64,000 bases of DNA from a virus. This document shows, in pieces, positions 24,552-58,126 of the stretch. The position numbers and the translations under genes are program-made. The DNA lies in the IMG/VR virus record IMGVR_UViG_3300021440_000014, positions 64,001 to 128,000 of that record, one strand, 5' to 3'. The notes beneath the pieces were generated by a model that ran no database searches, was not told the origin of the DNA, and saw only the letters and a program-made list of their open reading frames with translations. Within the stretch, counting starts at the first letter, position 1, and every line of letters begins with the position of its first letter.

Positions 24552-24628
24552 TGGCCTGTAGCTCAATTGGTTAGAGCAGAGCACTCATAATGCTTTGGTT
24601 CTCGGTTCAAGTCCGAGCAGGCCAACCA
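24552..24628 (+). tRNA. tRNA with CAT anticodon, probably Ile2
   Basis: Cloverleaf TGGCCTG/CAGGCCA, loop CTCATAA, CCA end; body resembles Ile2-type tRNAs. Confidence 0.85.
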
Positions 24629-24676
24629 ATTTAAGTTTGACTTCTTAGAAAAAAAATGCTAACATCATAAACACTT

Positions 24677-24753
24677 GCTTCCGTAATTCAATTGGATAGA
24701 AATTTTGCCTTCTAAGCAAAAAGTTATAGGTTCAAATCCTATCGGAAGCACCA
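24677..24753 (+). tRNA. tRNA-Arg(TCT)
   Basis: GCTTCCG/CGGAAGC, TTTGC-CTTCTAA-GCAAA, CCA. Confidence 0.9.
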
Positions 24754-25136
24754 ATTTTTCTTTACTTAATCTAAAAAACATATATCATAAAAATATGAAA
24801 GTAACCTCTGAACCAATTACTGAAAAAGAAGAATTTCCTTTTATTGGCTTCTACACACTTAGCAAAGGGGACGGCTTGTTCTTGTTACAGGATATGGAGC
24901 AAATAAATCTTTCTATAAAGGAATAATGATTACTCCAAGTGATGTTTATAAAGCTTTTGCATATGATAGTGATCATTGGGACAAAAACACAATAAAACGA
25001 TTTAGAGGCAAAATTACAATCGAGTGCCCTTAATTTATATTATTGACTTCACGCAAAAATCTGTTAGATTAGTAACGTTCTTTGATGATTTCTAATTATT
25101 AGGTGTAATAGTAGATATAAGTTAATATCTGCTATT

Positions 25137-25694
25137 ATGCCAATATGTAAAAAATGCAACAACAAGTTTCCGTGTAAAATTACCTTAAATGGTAAAGAAA
25201 AGTTTTTACATACTAGATCTTACTGTTTAGATTGCTCTCCATTAGGTAAAAATCTAGGCTATGATTTAAGAAAAGAATCGAACGATAAGAAATATATTGA
25301 TTTATTCCAAAAAGAAGGAGTAATAAAATGTAGAATATGCGAAAGATCTTATCTAAGGAAAAAGAAAAACAATTTAATATGTTCTACTTGTAGGAATTCT
25401 TATTTTAGATTTAATCAAAGAAATAAAGCGATAGATTCATTAGGCGGGAAATGCTCTAAATGCGACTGCAAAGATAAAGAAGTATTACAGTTCCACCATA
25501 CAGATCCAAATCAAAAAGATTTTAATTTATCTGGCAACTGGTCACAAAAAGAATGGTTGACTTTAGAAAAAGAAATAGTAAAATGTATTTTATTATGTGC
25601 TAACTGCCATTCTAAAGAACATCGAAAAGACTTAACAAAAATCATTGAATTTTATGGGCAAGTGGCGAAGTTGGATGAAACGCAGCAGACTTAA
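25137..25694 (+). CDS. HNH endonuclease with zinc fingers
   Basis: LGGKCSKC...LQFHH.DP.QK...KCILLCANCH; 3' end overlaps tRNA-Leu. Confidence 0.85.
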   Translation: MPICKKCNNKFPCKITLNGKEKFLHTRSYCLDCSPLGKNLGYDLRKESNDKKYIDLFQKEGVIKCRICERSYLRKKKNNLICSTCRNSYFRFNQRNKAIDSLGGKCSKCDCKDKEVLQFHHTDPNQKDFNLSGNWSQKEWLTLEKEIVKCILLCANCHSKEHRKDLTKIIEFYGQVAKLDETQQT

Positions 25695-25744
25695 AATCTG
25701 CTACATAAGAAACACCGTGGGTTCGATCCCCACCTTGCCTACCA
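25656..25744 (+). tRNA. tRNA-Leu(TAA)
   Basis: GGGCAAG/CTTGCCT, GCAGA-CTTAAAA-TCTGC, long variable region, CCA. Confidence 0.9.
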
Positions 25745-25753
25745 TTTTAATAT

Positions 25754-25872
25754 TTACCCGTGCTTATGCTAACCGAGAAGACTTTAGGGTCAACAAGTGT
25801 GAGAGAGCACAACTGAACACAAGTAGGTTCCTATCGAAAGGAAACGAGTAGAAGGACTCTCGCAGCGGGTAA
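25754..25872 (+). ncRNA. structured RNA, CCCGTGC family, copy 1
   Basis: Terminal stem TTACCCG/CGGGTAA; GTGAGAG/CTCTCGC; homologous to 49940-50063. Confidence 0.6.
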
Positions 25873-25882
25873 CTCAATTTAG

Positions 25883-26004
25883 TGGATACGTGGCGGAAAA
25901 TAGACGCAGCATAGTGTATAACTTGCACGGATAAGTAACCTATACTATGACAGAGGGAGAACGTGTATGAACCCTCATGCAAGTGTCAAACCTTGCCGTA
26001 TCCA
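25883..26004 (+). ncRNA. tRNA-like RNA with expanded anticodon/variable region (GGATACG family)
   Basis: GGATACG/CGTATCC acceptor, GCG..CGC D arm, GCAAG-TGTCAAAC-CTTGC T-like arm; no standard anticodon loop. Confidence 0.65.
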
Positions 26005-26046
26005 TATTCTATTTGACATTTAGTAAAAATATCATATTCTTTAGAT

Positions 26047-26286
26047 ATGAAATACATAGCTTTTGAATGCAATGGGCAGGTGATGCCAATTCTGTTTGCA
26101 GATCATACGGATCATTCAATGATTGCCCGCTGTGTCAAATCAGAATATCCCGGCTATAAGGTTAAATCCGCTGGTTTTGCGGGGCGCAATGGATCTGTAT
26201 GGGGCGAATCAGTTTCGCTTAGAGTCAAGTCCGATGTCGAAGATGAATTTTACATAAAAAGAATTTTGGGCATTGACATTGATTAA
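26047..26286 (+). CDS. hypothetical phage protein
   Basis: MKYI...H..IA....SAGF...GES.SL; leaderless promoter. Confidence 0.6.
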   Translation: MKYIAFECNGQVMPILFADHTDHSMIARCVKSEYPGYKVKSAGFAGRNGSVWGESVSLRVKSDVEDEFYIKRILGIDID

Positions 26287-26311
26287 AAATAAGTTAAACT
26301 CTTTATCTAAC

Positions 26312-26387
26312 GCGCTTATAGCTCAATTGGTAGAGCACGACACTTTTAATGTTGTGGTTTCGGGTTCGAGTCCCGATGGGCGCACCA
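26312..26387 (+). tRNA. tRNA-Lys(TTT)
   Basis: GCGCTTA/TGGGCGC, CGACA-CTTTTAA-TGTTG, CCA. Confidence 0.92.
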
Positions 26388-26429
26388 ATTTAACATTGAC
26401 TAAAAATAAAAATAAGCTAGGATAGAACT

Positions 26430-26615
26430 ATGGAATTCACTGAAGCTCAAATCAGCAACTTCAAAGCTTACGAAAAAGTCCGTGCGAGCGGCAAATATAA
26501 TATGTTTGATCCTAGAGCTATACGAGCGTCTGGATTGCCTCAGAGCGAATACATTTTCGTTATGGATAATTATACTGCATTGGAAGCGGCGGCAGCAGAA
26601 CAAATAGCTAACTAA
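26430..26615 (+). CDS. hypothetical protein
   Basis: VRASGKYNMFD motif; own promoter. Confidence 0.6.
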   Translation: MEFTEAQISNFKAYEKVRASGKYNMFDPRAIRASGLPQSEYIFVMDNYTALEAAAAEQIAN

Positions 26616-26617
26616 TT

Positions 26618-26794
26618 TACTCATAGGTATAATAACAAGCAGTCCCATGCGGGATGAATGACAACCGCCAATCGTCATGGCGACAAATCAGCGGCTCCAT
26701 TATGACGAAAGAATGGAGTAAAGCGGCTTATTGGTCGCGAAAAACACCTAGAGTATGCCGTGAGAGTAAGCCTGATAAGGGAAGAAATCACGGC
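26618..26794 (+). ncRNA. candidate multi-branched structured RNA
   Basis: TACTC-A-TAGGT/ACCTAGAGTA closing stem, several internal hairpins, then GCCGTGA/TCACGGC. Confidence 0.45.
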
Positions 26795-26837
26795 TAAATT
26801 TTCTTTACTTCTAATAAAAATAACTTAACCTTAAATC

Positions 26838-27104
26838 ATGGCTGAATTATTCAAAGTCTTGTTTGGTCGCTCTAAAAAGAGAATGAAAACCATCATGGTT
26901 GATAAATATCAAAAATGCGAGAATTACGTTCTTGCCCGCAGTAATGTTTTGGGTTTTCATGAAATTGTTAAAGCAGAAAAAGGCGAAGAGACTTGGAGGC
27001 AAAAATCCGCCACTGTAGGCGGCAATCGTTGTGAATCTGTCGGGCGGGTAGGCAAAGGCGCAAGTGGTTATATCTCAAAAAACGGCTTTAATCCTCATAC
27101 TTAA
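26838..27104 (+). CDS. hypothetical protein
   Basis: Own promoter. Confidence 0.5.
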   Translation: MAELFKVLFGRSKKRMKTIMVDKYQKCENYVLARSNVLGFHEIVKAEKGEETWRQKSATVGGNRCESVGRVGKGASGYISKNGFNPHT

Positions 27105-27296
27105 AATGAAATTCGCTCTTTACTTTTTACTTGGAGCAGCTTTAGCTTTAATGGGTTTTCCAATCTTTCCAAAAGAGGGATTCAATATCGTAAATTTTCT
27201 AATACTAATTCTTTGTATGCTTATCCTTAAAATTATTCTCGGCGAGAAAAACGAAGAATAATTTGACTAATCAAAAATAAATGGTATTGTATATCC

Positions 27297-27362
27297 AACG
27301 AGCGGTAAACAACCCGTAGACGTAAAATTCTAAGGGAACCTGCCCAAATAGCTTTAACGTCA
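27297..27362 (+). ncRNA. repeated short RNA element, copy 4
   Basis: After TTGACT-N16-TATTGT; CCGTAGACGTAAAATTCTAAGGGAACCTG. Confidence 0.5.
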
Positions 27363-27430
27363 TAGTAAAGTAAATAATAAAGTTAAAAAAAGAATTGATT
27401 TTAGTAAAAAATAGATTACTCTTTCCTTAC

Positions 27431-27649
27431 ATGAAAATCAAAAAGATTACCACTGGTTTTGTTATTCAAACTTTCGACACTGATACTGGTAAGTATGTCA
27501 ATCAGGAATTTGTGGCGGGAGATCAAGTTGATTATGAAAATCAAAAGGGCGTAACCCTTGATCCTCTTATGATGGAAAATTTGAATTTCGGCCCCTATGC
27601 CGCAAACGAGCCTTATCTTTCCTTTGATATGGTTCAACCTAAAAACTAA
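27431..27649 (+). CDS. hypothetical protein
   Basis: Start moved to MKIKKITTGFVIQ. Confidence 0.55.
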   Translation: MKIKKITTGFVIQTFDTDTGKYVNQEFVAGDQVDYENQKGVTLDPLMMENLNFGPYAANEPYLSFDMVQPKN

Positions 27650-27684
27650 TTGACTTTTAATAAAAATAATCCATAATAACTTAC

Positions 27685-27909
27685 ATGAACATAATCGTTA
27701 CTAAAATTCACAATAACTCACTTGGCAAAGTTGTTTCCGCAAGCTCTTTTGATGAAGCTAAAGACATTCTGCGCGGCTGGGCAGAGAAACAGTTCCAACG
27801 TCCGCTCACCGATGAGGAGATCGACGACTTGGAAGATGAAATGGAAATTTACGACGATACCGATTCAGATAATATCTATTCTTTTTCGGTAGGCATAGTG
27901 GAAGAATGA
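27685..27909 (+). CDS. acidic hypothetical protein
   Basis: D/E-rich C-terminus; own promoter. Confidence 0.55.
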   Translation: MNIIVTKIHNNSLGKVVSASSFDEAKDILRGWAEKQFQRPLTDEEIDDLEDEMEIYDDTDSDNIYSFSVGIVEE

Positions 27910-27975
27910 ATTGACAATTTCAAAAAATAGATTAGTATTTACCTGTAGCGAAAAACTAACTAAATAAAAAAAAAT

Positions 27976-28968
27976 ATGGCTCATAAAATCAACAAACGCG
28001 ACATTCAAACCGGACTCACTCAAGCGTGGCATGGCAAGACTAACCTTGTGGAAAAGATTACCCGCGAGAATAGCGGCATCGTTTATCCCATGAGCAAGCA
28101 ACCTCTCTTGCTTCCCAACAAGACAGAAACGGAACATTTTGCAATCGTTAGCGACGACGACGGTTTGCCAATTGGTAATCCTGTTAAAAAGGGTTACAAG
28201 CTCATTACTAATGAGCAGATGCTTGACATTATCGACAAAACCATTGCCGGAACAAGTCACCAAATTGTTTCCATCGGTTCCGTTAGTAATCGCGAGAAAG
28301 TTTTCGCCTCGATTAAGGTATCAGATGATTTCATCGCGGCGGGACGCAAGACAGAGAATACCCTAAACATTCTTTGGGGTCATGGCGGTGTGTTCAGCGT
28401 CATGGGTCGTTCTAGCTTTACTGTCGTCGTTTGCGCGAATACCTTTCAAATGGCTTTGGTTACGGGCGGAAAAGATTTTGCCTTTCGCATGAAGCATACC
28501 GGCAACGCTGTATTGAAACTGGATAACTTCTCAGAAGCTCTCGATTCACATTACGGCGTAGTTGCTGAATTCCGCGCAGCAATGGAAGAGTTTTCTAATA
28601 CTTCCATTTCTAAAGTTGATGCAAAACGCGCAATTGCAGGCTTTCTTGTCGAAGACGAAAAGCTTAATCAAATGCAGAAATTGCCTACTCGAACAACTAA
28701 CGTCATTGAGCGCGTCAATCAGTTGTTTACTGGTGGTCCCGGTAACAAGGGCGAAAATCTTGCTGACTTGTTCAATGGTTTTACTGATTACTATACCCAT
28801 GAAAGCTCTGGAATTGGTAGTGGCGGGAAAGATAACTGGAAACAGTTTGAATCATCGGAATTCGGAAGCGCGAATCGTAAGAAAATGGAAGTCTTCGATC
28901 TTCTCTCTGATTCCGATGCTTTTAATAAGACACTTGTGCGCGGCGACAAGGTTTTGCAGCTAATGTAA
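27976..28968 (+). CDS. DUF932/DUF945-family protein
   Basis: AWHG, Y.LI.N, VVCANT, MKHT, FNGFTDYYTH. Confidence 0.75.
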   Translation: MAHKINKRDIQTGLTQAWHGKTNLVEKITRENSGIVYPMSKQPLLLPNKTETEHFAIVSDDDGLPIGNPVKKGYKLITNEQMLDIIDKTIAGTSHQIVSIGSVSNREKVFASIKVSDDFIAAGRKTENTLNILWGHGGVFSVMGRSSFTVVVCANTFQMALVTGGKDFAFRMKHTGNAVLKLDNFSEALDSHYGVVAEFRAAMEEFSNTSISKVDAKRAIAGFLVEDEKLNQMQKLPTRTTNVIERVNQLFTGGPGNKGENLADLFNGFTDYYTHESSGIGSGGKDNWKQFESSEFGSANRKKMEVFDLLSDSDAFNKTLVRGDKVLQLM

Positions 28969-29037
28969 AAACAAAATGGGGAAGTAACTAACCCATTTGA
29001 TTCTTTACTTTCTATAAAAATGAAATAGAATTTAGGT

Positions 29038-29352
29038 ATGCAAACGGAACCAGATATTCTTACAGAACATTACGGAGTATCTCAAGGGTATGATATACCT
29101 AGATTTAGATCGACATTAAATTCCTCATGCGTCAATTTTATTAAATGGCAGGAAAAGCGTTTAGACGCGAATTGCAGCAAAGTATGGTGGCAAAAAAATA
29201 GATTAGGCGAAACTTTTTTATTCGGCAAATTCAATTGCAAAGATAAAAGCTGGATACCTGTTACGCTTGCTTATTATTACCCGAATGTAGGTTTCGTCAC
29301 TCAAAGACGGGAAGTTATAGAATTTAGATTAGCCCATAACCCTTTTGATTAA
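29038..29352 (+). CDS. hypothetical protein
   Basis: Leaderless promoter. Confidence 0.5.
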   Translation: MQTEPDILTEHYGVSQGYDIPRFRSTLNSSCVNFIKWQEKRLDANCSKVWWQKNRLGETFLFGKFNCKDKSWIPVTLAYYYPNVGFVTQRREVIEFRLAHNPFD

Positions 29353-29556
29353 AAATATGTATTTCGGCCTAACACATTGGAAAGGTGACTTGTTCGATAT
29401 GTTCTTTTGCAGTGATATTTCCTTCCATACTTGGAATAAAGAAATCATTTCTGAACCCTTCATTGAGATTCCTTATTGGGAAATTGGACAATTGCTAGGA
29501 GGTAATTGACAAAACAGAAAAACCTGCTAAAGTATAAGGGTAGCAGATAGTTAAAT

Positions 29557-29635
29557 GCGCCATTAGCTCATCGTAGGTTAGAGCAGTCTCTTTATAAGGG
29601 TCAGGTGGATCGTTCAAGCCGATCATGGCGTACCA
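29557..29635 (+). tRNA. tRNA-Ile(TAT)
   Basis: GCGCCAT/ATGGCGT, loop TTTATAA, one mismatch in the anticodon stem, CCA. Confidence 0.8.
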
Positions 29636-44734: not shown

Positions 44735-45442
44735 ATGAGCAGACCTTGGACAAATGAGGATTCAGAAAGTCTAAAAAAACTTTACGGAACAATGCCCCTT
44801 AAAGAATTAGCTTCTATTTTAAATAGACATGGAACATATTTATGTATCAAAGCTAAAAAACTTGGCATCCAATCTAGTAAATCAAAACTAACAATGGAAC
44901 AGCTATTTCTTAAGAAAAGCAATCAAAGAAGATGTTATAAATGTAAACAAATAATGCCTTTCATAAATGAATTTTTTTACGCTTCTAAAAGATGCTGTCG
45001 TAAATGTGAAAGAAAAATAGCAATTATTAATTTTTACAACTTAAAAAATAATCCAACTCTTCCTAAAGTAATGATGTCAAGGTTATATGCAAGTAAGTCT
45101 CGGGCAAGATCTAAAAAAATAGATTTTAATCTTGACATAAGCTATCTTCTTGTTTTATGGACAAAGCAAGAAGGAAAATGTTTTTATTCAAAACTTCCAA
45201 TGAAAATAAAAATAGAATCTCGCTATGAAAACACTGAAGTTCTTTCTATTGATAGAATCGATCCTGACAAAGGATACATTAAAGGCAACATTGTTCTTTG
45301 CTGTGATGCAGTTAATACAATGAAGAATAATATGTCTTTGGATAAATTCAAGACTTTTATAAAAATAATTAACGAAAATTTTCAAGAAATGGCAAATAAG
45401 CCTTTAAGCACAACTCATTTGCAAAATTCAGATCAAATCTAG
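44735..45442 (+). CDS. HNH-like homing endonuclease
   Basis: QEGKCFYS, SIDRIDPDKGY..GN...N.MK; lies antisense within a minus-strand block. Confidence 0.8.
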   Translation: MSRPWTNEDSESLKKLYGTMPLKELASILNRHGTYLCIKAKKLGIQSSKSKLTMEQLFLKKSNQRRCYKCKQIMPFINEFFYASKRCCRKCERKIAIINFYNLKNNPTLPKVMMSRLYASKSRARSKKIDFNLDISYLLVLWTKQEGKCFYSKLPMKIKIESRYENTEVLSIDRIDPDKGYIKGNIVLCCDAVNTMKNNMSLDKFKTFIKIINENFQEMANKPLSTTHLQNSDQI

Positions 45443-46094
45443 TAATAAATGCTTTTTTCTCGTAAGCTTTCTTAAGTTTTATTTCGAATTCGTTTATCAT
45501 TTTTATTAAATCTTCAATCTTAAAATCTTCAGGGGCAAACTTTATTGATCGAAGTAATGAATAAATGCTTCTATCTTTATTTTTAATATTTGTTGGGAAA
45601 ATTCCATATTCAAAATAGAACTGCCCCGCCCAAGAAAGCCTTATTAATTGGGTCACGTTTTTGGGAGAAAATTGATATTTGAGTATTTGTTCATGCCTTT
45701 TACATCCTGTTTTACTTTTTCTTTCTCCAAAGGCCAGTCTTTTTTCTCCCTGCATATAACCAAGAAGACATTTAAATAATCTTTCTGAATCTATAAGTTT
45801 GTGTCTATTTAATTGAGTCTCTTTCCAGATTTCACTTATTTCAATCCAATCCTCATTAAAAAGCAATTCAAAACTTTGAGTATTGCCCTGCCTAAGAAGA
45901 CTTAGGGTATGCCTGAATTCAGTATAGAGTTGATCGTCGTCTTTATCTTGCTTTAAGGCATGTTCGTTCTTTCCTAAGCCGATGATATCGTTGATATTAT
46001 CATTTAGGAATACTCCACGGTAGTCTACGTCGCTTTCTGGGCCATCTAGTCCATACATTTTAGATCCTCCAAGACACTTACAGATAATTTTCAT
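45369..46094 (-). CDS. DNA polymerase beta-family nucleotidyltransferase
   Basis: GS.MYGL..PESDVDYRGVF. Confidence 0.8.
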   Translation of the reverse strand: MKIICKCLGGSKMYGLDGPESDVDYRGVFLNDNINDIIGLGKNEHALKQDKDDDQLYTEFRHTLSLLRQGNTQSFELLFNEDWIEISEIWKETQLNRHKLIDSERLFKCLLGYMQGEKRLAFGERKSKTGCKRHEQILKYQFSPKNVTQLIRLSWAGQFYFEYGIFPTNIKNKDRSIYSLLRSIKFAPEDFKIEDLIKMINEFEIKLKKAYEKKAFITRFDLNFANELCLKAYLPFLENFR

Positions 46095-48937: not shown

Positions 48938-49399
48938 CTAATTTCTTTTAGCGGGAGGAATTGAGTTATAGAGATCAATAGCTTTACAAGTCCCACAAAG
49001 AGGATCTTTTCCCGGCCCATGACAGCATTCTCCGTGTTTCGCGAGTGTGGCGCAAGCTTTTCTTAGTTTATCATTTTCAATCTCTAGGTCAATTAGTTTA
49101 TTAATATAAATTGTATTGTCGAATTCCGAATCCGGTTTACATACATAAACCAAATAAGGATCTGGTTTGTCTGAGGTTTTCATTGTCCCTACAGTTAAAC
49201 CTTTAGACTCAAGAAATGTTAATTGTTTTTGAGCTTTTTGCAATTTATCTCGATAATGGTCGCGCTCTGCCTGCATTTGAACAACAATCTCTTTTTGATT
49301 GTTTCTCTCTTGCTCTATTTTGTGGGCGAAGTCTCTAGCTTCCTCAAGTGTTTCCCATTGCGCACAGGCTGCGTCTGATTCTGACGTATTTGAGTTCAT
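48938..49399 (-). CDS. hypothetical coiled-coil protein
   Basis: ORF directly downstream of the ncRNA array. Confidence 0.55.
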   Translation of the reverse strand: MNSNTSESDAACAQWETLEEARDFAHKIEQERNNQKEIVVQMQAERDHYRDKLQKAQKQLTFLESKGLTVGTMKTSDKPDPYLVYVCKPDSEFDNTIYINKLIDLEIENDKLRKACATLAKHGECCHGPGKDPLCGTCKAIDLYNSIPPAKRN

Positions 49400-49411: not shown

Positions 49412-49529
49412 TGAGCACGGCAGGATTTTAACCTGCAAATCCCTTGTACAAGGAATATTTATTGGGTTTCTCAGTTGTATCTAATAGGGCAAATCCCTCC
49501 CTTGCTTTTTACATTCCGCCACGCGCTCA
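49412..49529 (-). ncRNA. tRNA-like RNA with expanded anticodon region
   Basis: GAGCGCG/CGTGCTC acceptor, TGGCGGAA D-arm start, GCAGG-TTAAAAT-CCTGC T arm. Confidence 0.6.
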
Positions 49530-49534
49530 TAAAT

Positions 49535-49683
49535 TGGTGCCCCGCTAGGAATCGAACCTAGTTTCTTCGCAATACTACTTTACCGCATAGGACGTTACTA
49601 AAGCCACGTTCGCTTGTTCTCGTTCCCTGTAGCGTTTCGCCTTGGCTACAGCAAGAATCTCACTTGCAGACCAATCTCGGGGC
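49535..49683 (-). ncRNA. 149-nt tRNA-like RNA ending in CCA
   Basis: GCCCCG/CGGGGC-ACCA, CTAGG-TTCGATT-CCTAG T arm, large insert, no canonical D or anticodon arm. Confidence 0.65.
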
Positions 49684-49696
49684 TAAATTAAAGTTT

Positions 49697-49839
49697 TGGA
49701 TACGGCAAGATTTGATACTTGTAATTTATCTTGATAGGACTCGAACCTACAGTCCTTTTTCAATAGGAAGTCCTGTTTATACAGGTAGAGCGTCCCTACC
49801 ACTCACAGCAAGATTGCGTCTACTTCCGCCACGTATCCA
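49697..49839 (-). ncRNA. GGATACG-family tRNA-like RNA containing a nested tRNA-like fold
   Basis: Same termini as 25883-26004; inner unit 49728-49814 has its own GTAGG-TTCGAGT-CCTAT T arm. Confidence 0.65.
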
Positions 49840-49850
49840 TTAAAAGTGAA

Positions 49851-49933
49851 TTGACTGTAGTTGTCATTGAGTTCTTACATCCAGCATTATACTGGGCCAC
49901 GCTCATATGTTTACATATTGCAACTACAGTCAA
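49851..49933 (-). ncRNA. stem-closed multi-branch RNA
   Basis: 13-bp stem TTGACTGTAGTTG/CAACTACAGTCAA with two internal hairpins. Confidence 0.5.
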
Positions 49934-49939
49934 ATTGAA

Positions 49940-50063
49940 TTCCCCGCCGTGAGAGTCTGTCTTTCTTCGGTTTTAATGTGACAGTAACCGCTTCTATTGC
50001 TCTCTCACACTTCTCTATCTTTAGACTCGTCTAAGTAGATTCTGCCAGCACAGGCACGGGGAA
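49940..50063 (-). ncRNA. structured RNA, CCCGTGC family, copy 2
   Basis: TTCCCCG/CGGGGAA, AAGTGTGAGAGAGCA...GACTCTCAC. Confidence 0.6.
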
Positions 50064-50073
50064 ATATCAAAAA

Positions 50074-50472
50074 TCAATCAAATTCATCGTAAGCATTATC
50101 ACGGCTATAAACCGAAAAAGTCACCGTAGGACCAATTCCGAAAGACTCTTCAAGACTACTAAAAACAATCGTATCGTCGGCAACTTGAGTAGCCTGAATT
50201 TGAGAGCGAGCCTGATCGGGATTGACTACGCTGAAGATAATAATACCTCCTTTCGGAATACGCAAGTCTTTAACTTTGCTAACGCCATTAAAAATTAAAA
50301 CCCTACCAACAAGTTTTGGCGCGAAATCAGAAGTAGCCGCCTGAGCCTGCCTGTTTTGGAAATGTGCGATACGTCTATCCGCGCCATTCAATTGATTTAC
50401 TAGGAAAAAGGAGCCAACAATGGCAATAGCCGAAGAAATAAGAGCCAAGTTAAGAGTATTTTTATTGTTCAT
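50074..50472 (-). CDS. secreted/membrane-anchored hypothetical protein
   Basis: N-terminal hydrophobic helix. Confidence 0.55.
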   Translation of the reverse strand: MNNKNTLNLALISSAIAIVGSFFLVNQLNGADRRIAHFQNRQAQAATSDFAPKLVGRVLIFNGVSKVKDLRIPKGGIIIFSVVNPDQARSQIQATQVADDTIVFSSLEESFGIGPTVTFSVYSRDNAYDEFD

Positions 50473-52523: not shown

Positions 52524-53282
52524 TTACTTGCCAAAAACGTAACCAATAAGAGATTCTCCAATCTTGCGATCCTTATCAGTTTCCACTTCATTGGCGCGAC
52601 TACGAGCCTTACGAACTGCTCGGCCCAAAATTTCAATCCGGTTAAGAATATCAGACTTTTGCGCTGGAGTCAACAATCCGCTCCATTCCTGTTCTTCAAT
52701 TTCGCCAATTTCAACGTCCTTATCGACTAATTGAGTTTGCGCAGGATGCTCTACCGTAGGAGGATGAAGAACAATAACGACCTTCTCCTTCTTCGTGCGC
52801 TTCTTCTTAACTGAACGCGCAACGAAATACCCCTTGCCGCGAGCTTCATCAGGTCGGAATCCCTTTGCCGGATCAAGGGTAGGTGCCGCAGCAACGAGCG
52901 TTGCAAGTTCCGTAACGCGCTTTTCAAGTTCGAGAAGAGTTGTAGCGGGAACACCTGTTACCAACGTAACTCCATCTTCCGTAACAATATCGGCCCGCGC
53001 AATTGTATTGGCTTCGGCGATTTGATAGGAGGAGTCAATTGCCTTGATAAGGAAGGGTTTGATTGCCTGAAGTTCCTTCTCTACCGTAGTCTGAATATCT
53101 GATTGACTTTCAGTGACAGAAGATCCTTCTCCTGAAGGAGTAAATGTAACTCGCTTTTCCTCAAAAAGATGTCGCTTGCTCTCGAATGATTTCGTCAGAT
53201 CAGCGCGAACTTTTGAAGCCTGCGTCTCAAGCCCGCCATTAACCGCGAGCAATTCATGTAGTTTTGTCTTGTTATTTGCCAT
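52524..53282 (-). CDS. uncharacterised 252-aa helical protein linked to the permuted RNA
   Basis: KLHELLAV N-terminus, VPATTLLELEK, PTLDP, HPAQ, AR.RAN; the RNA starts at its stop codon. Confidence 0.75.
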   Translation of the reverse strand: MANNKTKLHELLAVNGGLETQASKVRADLTKSFESKRHLFEEKRVTFTPSGEGSSVTESQSDIQTTVEKELQAIKPFLIKAIDSSYQIAEANTIARADIVTEDGVTLVTGVPATTLLELEKRVTELATLVAAAPTLDPAKGFRPDEARGKGYFVARSVKKKRTKKEKVVIVLHPPTVEHPAQTQLVDKDVEIGEIEEQEWSGLLTPAQKSDILNRIEILGRAVRKARSRANEVETDKDRKIGESLIGYVFGK

Positions 53283-57130: not shown

Positions 57131-58126
57131 TTAATTTTCAATAGCAAAAGGCTCAGACAATATTTTAAAGCTCATTCTGCCACCTAAAACCTCGCTTTGT
57201 TGTTCTTTACAAGGTCTGCATACTATACCCTCTGCGCTGACGCCCTTTAAATATTCTTGCTCGTTAGCCATATTAATAAGCTGCTCTAAGCTGAAATTAA
57301 ATTTTCCTGCCCAAACTACAGGGACAAATGGTAAATTATTTTCAACACAAAATTCCATGAAAACATCAAAATCCGCATATTTACGATGCTTTATGCTAAA
57401 AAAGTTAAACAATGCAAGACTTATTTTTTCGGCTTTCATTGGGTTCTTTTGGATTCCCGGTCCATAGACTTCACCTTGCACAGCATAGTCTCCGGGGAAT
57501 TTAGCTCTAAAAGCTCTCAAAGCTTCTTCTATTTTATATTCTCTAGCAACTTTCCAAAAACCATTCCCCTCTTCTTCTTTTAATTCTAAATTTCTGGAGC
57601 AAACTCCGAATTTTTCGTCTTTAAGATAGAAGGTTCCGCTACTTCCATCCATTTTTAATGTAATACAAGATTCCTTGCCTTGGAGTTCTTTTATTACATC
57701 TGGATAGGTTCTACCATTCAATTCGTCTGTCCTCTTTAAAAAAGATGGGAAACTACCTTCTACTTTTCCGGCTAATTGTGCGGGAACCGGCTTTTCATAT
57801 TTCTGAATACCAGTTTGCTCCGTAACGTCCATTCCTTCGACAATACTATCTTTGTCCAAGAGAATATTGATAGGTAACGCAAGTCCTTCGGAATACTGCC
57901 CCTTAAGGCGAATGGTTTTTAATCTAAAATTCTTATTTCTAAGAAATTCATATTCTGGTTTTTGTGGCAAAATAGTATCGGAATAGTGATAAACACATAA
58001 ATCGTTTTCCTGAAACTCATTTTTCTTGACGACTACCTTATAACCAAGGATATCCGCAACCAAAATGTTATCTGCCCCTTCAATAGGGGAAAGCTTTTTT
58101 ATTCTTTCTATACTAGCTAATTTCAT
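57131..58126 (-). CDS. RNA ligase (Rnl2-like, DRB0094 type)
   Basis: N-terminal OB-like domain (PIEGAD, RLKGQYSEGL), KMDGSS, QGEVYGPGIQKN, EGIV, SFK. Confidence 0.88.
   Translation of the reverse strand: MKLASIERIKKLSPIEGADNILVADILGYKVVVKKNEFQENDLCVYHYSDTILPQKPEYEFLRNKNFRLKTIRLKGQYSEGLALPINILLDKDSIVEGMDVTEQTGIQKYEKPVPAQLAGKVEGSFPSFLKRTDELNGRTYPDVIKELQGKESCITLKMDGSSGTFYLKDEKFGVCSRNLELKEEEGNGFWKVAREYKIEEALRAFRAKFPGDYAVQGEVYGPGIQKNPMKAEKISLALFNFFSIKHRKYADFDVFMEFCVENNLPFVPVVWAGKFNFSLEQLINMANEQEYLKGVSAEGIVCRPCKEQQSEVLGGRMSFKILSEPFAIEN

Follow-up and report, generated by a model that had tools for sequence, protein, structure and literature searches.

The question raised by positions 49412-50066 of the DNA analysed here, a stretch of 64,000 nucleotides (hereafter the window) from the virus record IMGVR_UViG_3300021440_000014, is what some 650 bp without coding capacity are doing inside a minus-strand operon of a phage. 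An original prediction, made from the letters alone, had divided this array into five consecutive stem-closed units and proposed a polycistronic RNA cassette released by tRNA-processing enzymes. The analysis reported here leads to a similar answer, namely that the array is probably a co-transcribed cassette of five RNAs, which enzymes of tRNA maturation would cut into stable products. The units, numbered in the direction of transcription, and the linkers between them are the following, with the evidence for each in brackets.

49934..50066, minus strand: unit 1, an RNA of the U1 family (model R1, alignment A4, covariation of the closing helix P1, no Rfam match)
49851..49933, minus strand: unit 2, a hairpin-closed unit of 83 nt (minimum free energy -27.2 kcal/mol, z -4.35)
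49697..49839, minus strand: unit 3, a tRNA-Leu shell RNA (sequence; comparison with unit B, copy 4 and the orthologue on contig L185)
49535..49683, minus strand: unit 4, an orphan tRNA-like RNA of 149 nt (sequence and fold)
49412..49529, minus strand: unit 5, a tRNA-Leu shell RNA of the GAGCGCG type (Rfam tRNA, 29.4 bits; shared 5' frame)
49530..49534, minus strand: linker between units 4 and 5, AUUUA (sequence)
49684-49696, 49840-49850 and 49934-49939, minus strand: the other linkers (sequence)

The predicted layout of 6-13 bp stems and short AT-rich linkers in an ORF-free stretch was borne out by reading the minus strand and by the list of open reading frames (ORFs). No ORF of 60 or more amino acids lies in the array, the longest overlapping ones having 59, 39, 37, 34 and 33 amino acids, and the terminal stems of units 1-5 measure 7, 13, 7, 6 and 7 bp, respectively. 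The closing stems are UUCCCCG/CGGGGAA in unit 1, UUGACUGUAGUUG/CAACUACAGUCAA in unit 2, GGAUACG/CGUAUCC in unit 3, GCCCCG/CGGGGC, followed by A-CCA, in unit 4, and GAGCGCG/CGUGCUC in unit 5. The linkers are, in order, UUCAAU, UUCACUUUUAA, AAACUUUAAUUUA and AUUUA, all of them A/U-rich, free of G and 5-13 nt long. A T-arm hairpin abuts the 3' acceptor strand on its 5' side in units 3, 4 and 5 and is absent in units 1 and 2. The anticodon arm of a tRNA (a 5-bp stem, a 7-nt loop, U33 and a purine at position 37) was found in none of them, inserts of about 45-115 nt standing at its place.

ARAGORN and Rfam scans, which had been suggested as checks, gave a similar picture. At default thresholds, with or without introns, ARAGORN called no tRNA and no tmRNA in the array; at an 80% threshold, unit 4 was forced into a 'tRNA-Ser with 72-nt intron' and unit 5 into a 'tRNA-Leu with 23-nt intron', and a 'tmRNA' spanning units 3-5, obtained at relaxed threshold, was not credible. 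Rfam 15 was run both at gathering and at permissive thresholds, for the window as well as for 13 loci that contain GC-rich U1 members, and yielded tRNA matches only. Within the array its tRNA model (RF00005) reached unit 5 alone, with 29.4 bits against a cut-off of 29 and in E-value mode only, unit 5 not being listed in gathering mode for the whole window; in that alignment 44 nt stand where the model has its 9-position anticodon-loop region. The layout predicted, with acceptor and T arms in three units (3, 4 and 5) and a normal anticodon arm in none, is right. The five units are not all of one kind, however, a point that the prediction missed: besides one orphan they comprise at least three families without relation to one another.

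Folding z-scores against dinucleotide shuffles were -2.3, -4.35, -2.5, -1.9 and -1.8 for units 1-5, respectively, and folding energy alone is decisive for unit 2 only, for which 0 of 200 shuffles was as stable. The strong evidence for the array is instead comparative, consisting of the score of unit 1 against a model of its family and of the order of units 1-3, which is kept in L185. A further regularity concerns UGCUG, of which units 1-4 each have a single copy on the transcribed strand (CAGCA on the plus strand at 49649, 49806, 49882 and 50046); with equal base frequencies about 0.7 occurrences would be expected in 676 nt, compared with the four observed. The word UCUUGCUGU is common to units 3 and 4, the UGCUG of unit 1 is part of the conserved family word GUGCUGG, and UGCUG is not conserved in the L185 units.

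Unit 1 is built of P1 (7 bp), one bulged G, an 8-bp P2 (UGUGAGAG/CUCUCACG), the joints UGCCUGUGCUGG and GAAG and two variable regions. When the whole genome was searched with the array, short matches were obtained at window positions 25878-25908 and 25980-26004, and two further units, A and B, were recognised by reading that region; the first of them belongs with unit 1.

25751..25878, plus strand: unit A, the second U1-family RNA of the genome (R1 69.3 bits, E 1.5e-15)

Unit A is located directly after tRNA-Leu(UAA) in a plus-strand tRNA cluster, has the words GTGAGAGAGCA and GACTCTC in common with unit 1, and differs from it in P1 by a compensatory change (UUACCCG/CGGGUAA). A first pattern drawn from the words of the two copies matched two IMG/VR contigs. 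A stricter pattern matched 77 metagenome contigs, mostly from soil; 46 of these, together with contig L126, are distinct full-length relatives with the 5' motif, which brings the family to at least 47 distinct relatives in metagenomes and IMG/VR. Among 185,579 species genomes the U1 pattern matched seven times, and two of the seven matches were true members. P1, the bulged G, P2 and the conserved joints UGCCUGUGCUGG and GAAGC, by which membership is recognised, are all present in units 1 and A, and the length of U1 RNAs is roughly 130-180 nt.

Covariation in relatives, another of the checks suggested, was evaluated on A4, a MAFFT alignment of 49 U1 sequences that includes the two copies of the window and was not fitted to structure. 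Its 5' part comprises P1, a near-invariant joint (UGCCUGUGCUGGCCGAG), a variable region, GGCGAAGC and then P2 (CGCGAGAG with CUCUCGCG), and its 3' part AGCAC, a second variable region and one bulged G ahead of the 3' strand of P1. In A4, 95.9% of cells pair, and P1 changes on both sides at six of nine pairs; at one of these positions CG is found in 22 sequences, GC in 15, UA in 10 and AU in 2, and no sequence is unpaired. The covariation score was reached by none of 500 shuffles, and pairing fell to 33-61% when the partner was slid by 1-3 columns, so the random decay without compensation that would have spoken for pseudo-tRNAs was not seen in the closing helix of unit 1. P2 varies little, partly since the search pattern fixed its sequence, and a candidate pseudoknot, GUGCU/AGCAC, is 95% paired but almost invariant, so that covariation is uninformative there. 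Model R1, built from 49 sequences mostly of other genomes, with units 1 and A among its inputs, gave unit 1 a score of 89.1 bits (E 1.5e-20) and found exactly two copies in the phage, units 1 and A. Neither the window copies nor the GC-rich members matched any family of Rfam 15, even at permissive thresholds, and a literature search for printed U1 core sequences returned nothing relevant. With at least 47 relatives, such a degree of pairing, and P1 covariation beyond both shuffles and slid controls, these comparisons indicate that unit 1 is a real, selected RNA of a structured family absent from Rfam 15. A description of the variable regions as 'two variable hairpins' was unsupported (median folding z -0.13 and -0.49). 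The word GAGCGCGTGGCGGAA was also encountered as a coding tandem repeat of 18-nt units in the IMG/VR contig L234 (304-717, minus strand) and scattered through coding sequence in many phages of high GC content; roughly three in four matches to that pattern are not RNAs.

Units 3 and 5 are members of another family, here called tRNA-Leu shells, of which two more copies were found in the genome.

25882..26006, plus strand: unit B, a paralogue of unit 3 (z -3.63)
genome 133049-133272: copy 4, a fourth shell RNA (D-arm start UGGCGGAA)

All four have a 7-bp acceptor, whose sequence varies, and begin their D arm with UGGCGGAA; their T arm adjoins the acceptor, and inserts unrelated to one another stand in place of the anticodon arm. 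The discriminator is A in units 3, 5 and B and U in copy 4. Unit 4 is without the D-arm motif and is not a member. Unit 3 has an 8-nt T loop and no encoded CCA, and next to the closing stem its insert holds a T-arm-like hairpin, UAGG-UUCGAGU-CCUA. In the L185 orthologue the shell is identical and an inner T-arm hairpin, GCCGG-UUCAAAU-CCGGU, is found at the aligned place, with the loop motif kept and the stem changed on both sides. Unit B, which starts a few nt after unit A, has acceptor and T arm as in unit 3 around an unrelated insert. In unit 5 the variable arm is long and the insert that stands at the anticodon position is branched, and its 5' frame (GAGCGCGUGGCGGAAUGUAAA) is that of the shells found after U1 RNAs in L126, L203, L158 and L195. 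The pattern GTGGCGGAA-N2-4-AGACGC matched at least 120 IMG/VR contigs, and gave 87 unique hits with a perfect acceptor and an adjacent T arm, of which 35 are tRNAs according to ARAGORN (71-93 nt). The other 52 are not tRNAs by ARAGORN, measure 80-232 nt and mostly have discriminator A and no encoded CCA. By these pattern matches, anticodon-less tRNA-Leu shells are a large family absent from Rfam.

The remaining two units are orphans. Unit 2 occupies a slot of variable content, flanked by the U1-family RNA and the first shell RNA; in L185, L195, L171 and L145 the slot is taken by non-homologous stem-closed units. Unit 4 ends in CUAGG-UUCGAUU-CCUAG-CGGGGC-A-CCA-AUUU, that is, a canonical T arm (T loop GGUUCGAUUCC), the 3' acceptor strand, discriminator A and an encoded CCA, and this A-CCA-AUUU end resembles that of the real tRNAs of the phage; a structured RNA of about 115 nt replaces the D and anticodon arms. 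No homologue of unit 4 was found by nhmmer, and a pattern on its acceptor, T loop and 3' end recovered only interrupted tRNA-Gln genes with an insertion of about 55 nt between acceptor strand and D arm. These tRNA-Gln(UUG)-like genes, located in IMG/VR phage tRNA clusters (L337:7862-7995, L339:537-666, L340:6461-6594 and L341:9062-9191), have their 5' acceptor strand, GCCCCG, split by the structured insertion from otherwise normal D, anticodon and T arms, and are interrupted tRNAs of an unusual kind.

The families of units 1 and 5 recur together in other phages. Among 45 U1 loci with enough downstream sequence, a GAGCGCG-UGGCGGAA shell starts within 400 nt downstream in 11 and upstream in none, either directly past a 4-6 nt AUUU linker or past one or two stem-closed or tRNA-like units. 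The association is specific: R1 gave no match in 100 loci (0.87 Mb) retrieved with the generic shell pattern, and it matched five loci retrieved with the GAGCGCG pattern, plus L126. In L284, the U1 RNA and the GAGCGCG shell are 2.8 kb apart on opposite strands. In L177 and L163 the terminal shell is preceded by a tRNA-like RNA with CCA-(A)UUU at its end, similar to unit 4, and AAUUU linkers are kept in GC-rich cassettes too. The cassettes in L150, L203 and L254 end in a terminator, not a gene. The phage of L254, complete and terminally repeated at 63.6 kb, has a single U1 RNA with a single GAGCGCG shell next to it and a terminator; no match was obtained there to the tRNA model, RNA ligase, the RlaP nucleotidyltransferase or DUF7873, the last of these negatives being weak, as that search matched no control genome either. 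Since this phage carries the pair without a tRNA, RNA ligase or RlaP match, the U1 RNA and GAGCGCG shell are an independent module, neither an appendage of tRNA clusters nor dependent on neighbour genes of the RNA-repair type. Overall, the cassettes are shared between AT-rich jumbo-type phages and GC-rich temperate soil phages. A conserved neighbour protein of the U1 family was sought by clustering the ORFs of 49 loci, which gave only an artefact of frames read through the RNA. HNH homing-endonuclease genes adjoin several RNA cassettes, namely in the window (25137-25694, plus strand, overlapping the first 39 nt of tRNA-Leu), in L254 (2874-3491, after the cassette terminator) and downstream of the cassette in L203; they resemble segB in the tRNA cluster of T4 and the heg genes in that of T5, and are a possible vehicle for the spread of cassettes.

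GenBank phages yielded no relative by blastn, and three IMG/VR scans for relatives of the flanking proteins found nothing. A search of 5.8 billion proteins returned three homologues of flanking proteins, and of these L185, a metagenome contig, alone carries the array, with equivalents of units 1, 2 and 3 in the same order and a 35%-identical homologue of the ORF at 48938-49399 downstream. Aligned with the window, L185 is a mosaic in which the frames and two of the three aligned linkers are identical in runs of about 25 nt (e.g., the 3' end of unit 1 with its linker, or the linker before unit 3 with the start of the shell), and the interiors are unalignable. This pattern would reflect either very strong selection on frames and linkers or recombination of cassettes at them, and either account speaks against decay and for a function of the linkers themselves.

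Four of the five units (units 1, 3, 4 and 5, counting in unit 4 the A of CCA) have AAUUU directly at their 3' end or just past it, compared with about 5% per site by chance. Among the 15 tRNAs of the phage, CCA is encoded in 14, and AAUUU overlaps or follows it in eight. When tRNAs mature in E. coli, the 5' end is produced by RNase P, and RNase E cleaves in A/U-rich sequence immediately downstream of CCA; by analogy, the A/U-rich linkers are putative processing sites. Because no promoter or terminator signal across the array exceeded shuffle expectation and the linkers are too short for promoters, the array would be co-transcribed as one read-through transcript. The short promoter-less linkers, the AAUUU punctuation and the homologous cassettes with their order and linkers kept all support the polycistronic cassette that had been predicted.

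The mechanism proposed is that a precursor would be converted by the tRNA-maturation machinery of the host into discrete, stable RNAs of about 83-149 nt. Release by RNase P, RNase Z or RNase E is suggested by the shape of the units and by the AAUUU words shared with the real tRNAs. RNase P would cleave at the 5' end of each acceptor-like closing stem, and cleavage of the RNase E type, followed by exonuclease trimming, would take place in the conserved A/U-rich AAUUU linkers; CCA is encoded in unit 4, and the other units would need its addition or would have none. Units 1, 3 and 5 combine a constant frame with variable interiors, units 2 and 4 being without homologues for comparison. The frames, that is, the 'shell' of leucine-tRNA acceptor, D and T arms around unrelated inserts in units 3 and 5, the acceptor stem, T arm and CCA in unit 4 and the conserved two-helix core beside the variable regions in unit 1, would supply correct processing and nuclease resistance, as in an engineered tRNA scaffold. 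The activity would reside in the interiors and in the core of unit 1, and is probably to bind or decoy a tRNA-handling factor of the host, or possibly of the phage, the particular target being speculative. Additionally, the shells might be charged with leucine, because the leucyl-tRNA synthetase (LeuRS) of E. coli does not read the anticodon and relies on A73 and the tertiary core of the tRNA.

Several observations weigh against this proposal. The T loops of units 3 and 5 (UAUCAAAU and UUAAAAU) are non-canonical, the acceptor of unit 4 has only 6 bp, and units 1, 2, 3 and 5 are without encoded CCA; poor T loops and a short acceptor may make the efficiency of the RNAs as substrates of RNase P and the CCA enzyme uncertain. 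Units 2 and 4 have no detectable homologues and their structures come from single-sequence folding (z -1.9 for unit 4), and the variable regions of U1 RNAs are without thermodynamic signal. Lastly, no partner protein emerged, RNA ligase, RlaP and DUF7873 not being found in five U1-bearing phage records; for DUF7873 this is weak evidence of absence, as the search matched 0 of 14 control genomes.

Stable tRNA-like RNAs of phages have been known since the early work on T4 and T5. In T4, rnaD (species 2, 119 nt) and rnaC (species 1, 139 nt) are located at 71053-71171 and 70908-71046 of NC_000866, and, like the units of the array, they are small, non-coding and arranged head to tail, directly after a tRNA gene (tRNA-Arg). 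rnaC has a canonical T arm, CCGGG-UUCGAAU-CCCGG, and an acceptor-like strand without an anticodon arm. The two differ from the array in being two units inside a tRNA cluster, whereas the array has five units of at least three families and is 20 kb from the cluster. Both RNAs accumulate in infection, as validated by Northern blotting, and their functions were still unknown in 2022 (PMC9697503). T5 has RNA1, RNAI and RNAIII in tandem (NC_005859, 30284-30644), as well as RNA2, RNAIV, RNA2H and RNA3, annotated as stable RNAs, with RNA1 and RNA2 annotated as tRNA-like and of unknown function. The build of units 3 and 5 is found in T5 RNA1, which has a D arm like that of tRNA-Leu (GCCGGAAUUGGUAGACGG), a T arm and a large insert, but the acceptor and insert sequences differ and the T5 RNAs are interleaved with real tRNAs. 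When the tRNA regions of T4 and T5 were searched with all units, nhmmer found nothing at E up to 10, and R1 found nothing at E up to 1. The stable RNAs of T4 and T5 are thus analogues, alike in kind and not by descent, and the closest natural precedents.

The best mechanistic analogy for units 3-5 is the tRNA scaffold of Ponchon and Dardel, in which a structured RNA of any choice takes the place of the anticodon arm while the acceptor, D and T arms remain; cellular factors recognise the chimera, which in E. coli undergoes precise processing and is protected from degradation (PMC3753655). The scaffold is man-made, whereas the array is natural, multi-copy and combined with a family unrelated to tRNA (unit 1). 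Similarly, the tRNA-like domain of tmRNA has acceptor stem, T arm and CCA without an anticodon arm, as does unit 4. A tmRNA was nevertheless rejected for this unit, in which 3:70 is C-G and not the G-U of alanine identity and 149 nt leave no room for pseudoknots and a tag frame. No function has been assigned to any of the stable tRNA-like RNAs of phages (PMC9697503). The array is real and under selection, its anatomy is accounted for, and what is new in it is the U1 family, together with the conserved cassette by which a U1 RNA is tied to a particular tRNA-Leu-like shell. The tRNA-like RNAs of phages can accordingly be seen as modular cassettes of few conserved frames and variable interiors, and not as phage-specific oddities, and the U1 family, with its strongly covarying stem and near-invariant core, together with its recurrent partner is a testable object. 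Should the frames recruit LeuRS, the CCA enzyme or RNase P, they would be a natural version of the tRNA scaffold, and the cassette may be a phage route to interfere with the tRNA biology of the host or with defences that target tRNAs.

A bolder interpretation, tentative and on balance unlikely, is that the U1 RNA and the GAGCGCG shell form an obligate two-RNA module exchanged as a cassette, with the U1 core a catalytic or adaptor RNA acting on or with a partner that is probably leucine-chargeable. If true, the module would be a new RNA-RNA system hijacking the tRNA-handling machinery of the host.

For the other explanations, the genes around the array have to be considered, which with RlaP, an RNA ligase and DUF7873 are in part reminiscent of RNA repair.

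50074-50472, minus strand: upstream ORF, 132 aa, no family; its stop codon lies a few nt upstream of unit 1
48938-49399, minus strand: downstream ORF, 153 aa, no family; it starts 12 nt past unit 5
45369-46094, minus strand: RlaP nucleotidyltransferase, 241 aa (Pfam RlaP, 'RNA repair pathway DNA polymerase beta family', 32.6 bits), 3.3 kb downstream of the array
52524-53282: DUF7873 gene, 2.5 kb upstream of the array
57131-58126: RNA ligase gene

The position of the array between two co-oriented ORFs, one a few nt and the other 12 nt away, its lack of a promoter or terminator of its own and the start codon found 10-90 nt downstream of many metagenome U1 RNAs would all fit a role in cis, in which the units act as punctuation for mRNA processing and stability in the style of mitochondrial tRNA punctuation or t-elements, their tRNA-like folds recruiting RNase P or RNase Z to part the message upstream from that downstream and the excised RNAs being by-products. 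This explanation is considered improbable, as five consecutive units far exceed what punctuation needs, the U1 core is conserved in sequence beyond the requirement of a cleavage signal, the cassettes of L150, L203 and L254 lead into a terminator rather than a gene, and units A and B sit in a tRNA cluster and not between messages.

Slightly less probable still is that the RNAs are partners of a phage ribonucleoprotein, as Y RNAs are of Ro60. A candidate would be the DUF7873 protein, encoded nearby. Bacterial YrlA RNAs (RF02553) typically have tRNA-like modules; they act with Ro60/Rsr and are linked to RNA repair and surveillance genes, and this phage has RlaP and an RNA ligase. The ends of YrlA, however, form the Ro60-binding stem, so that its acceptor is sealed, whereas in the array the acceptor is a free end. 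No CAGCA handle is present on the transcribed strand in any of the five units, and none of them had a YrlA match in Rfam at E up to 10. The five U1-bearing records without a DUF7873 match, two of them at least 91% complete, also speak against it, weakly in view of the unmatched controls.

It is very improbable that the units are interrupted tRNA genes whose inserts are removed to give decoding tRNAs. The forced ARAGORN calls for units 4 and 5, the RNA ligase encoded by the phage and the interrupted tRNA-Gln genes of other phage contigs might be cited in its favour, but default thresholds gave no call, no simple excision leaves a 5-bp stem and 7-nt loop with U33 and purine 37, the inserts are too short for group I introns, and U1-shell cassettes occur in phage records without an RNA ligase match. 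Just as improbable, and largely refuted, is a set of functionless, decaying pseudo-tRNAs and chance hairpins, which the degenerate T loops, the missing CCA of units 3 and 5, the absence of homologues for units 2 and 4 and the modest z-scores of units 4 and 5 might suggest, since P1 of unit 1 covaries, the window and L185 agree fully in the frames and in two of three linkers with their proteins down to 35% identity, and the cassette order is conserved in unrelated GC-rich phages.

The record from which the window (bases 64001-128000) was taken has 172,010 bp and is an IMG/VR virus rated complete by CheckV, with a gene content that includes RIIA, large terminase, clamp loader and RNA ligase. RIIA has at most 36% identity to that of any GenBank phage, so the genome is very distant from cultured phages. 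ARAGORN found 15 tRNAs genome-wide, five of them in the window on the plus strand (24552-29635) and none within the array, which is about 20 kb from the nearest tRNA cluster. Outside the window, a tRNA-Met at genome positions 137196-137268 (minus strand) is the sole one of the 15 without an encoded CCA, and its cluster holds several tRNAs with unusual T loops (GUGCGAGUC and GUGCAAUUC).

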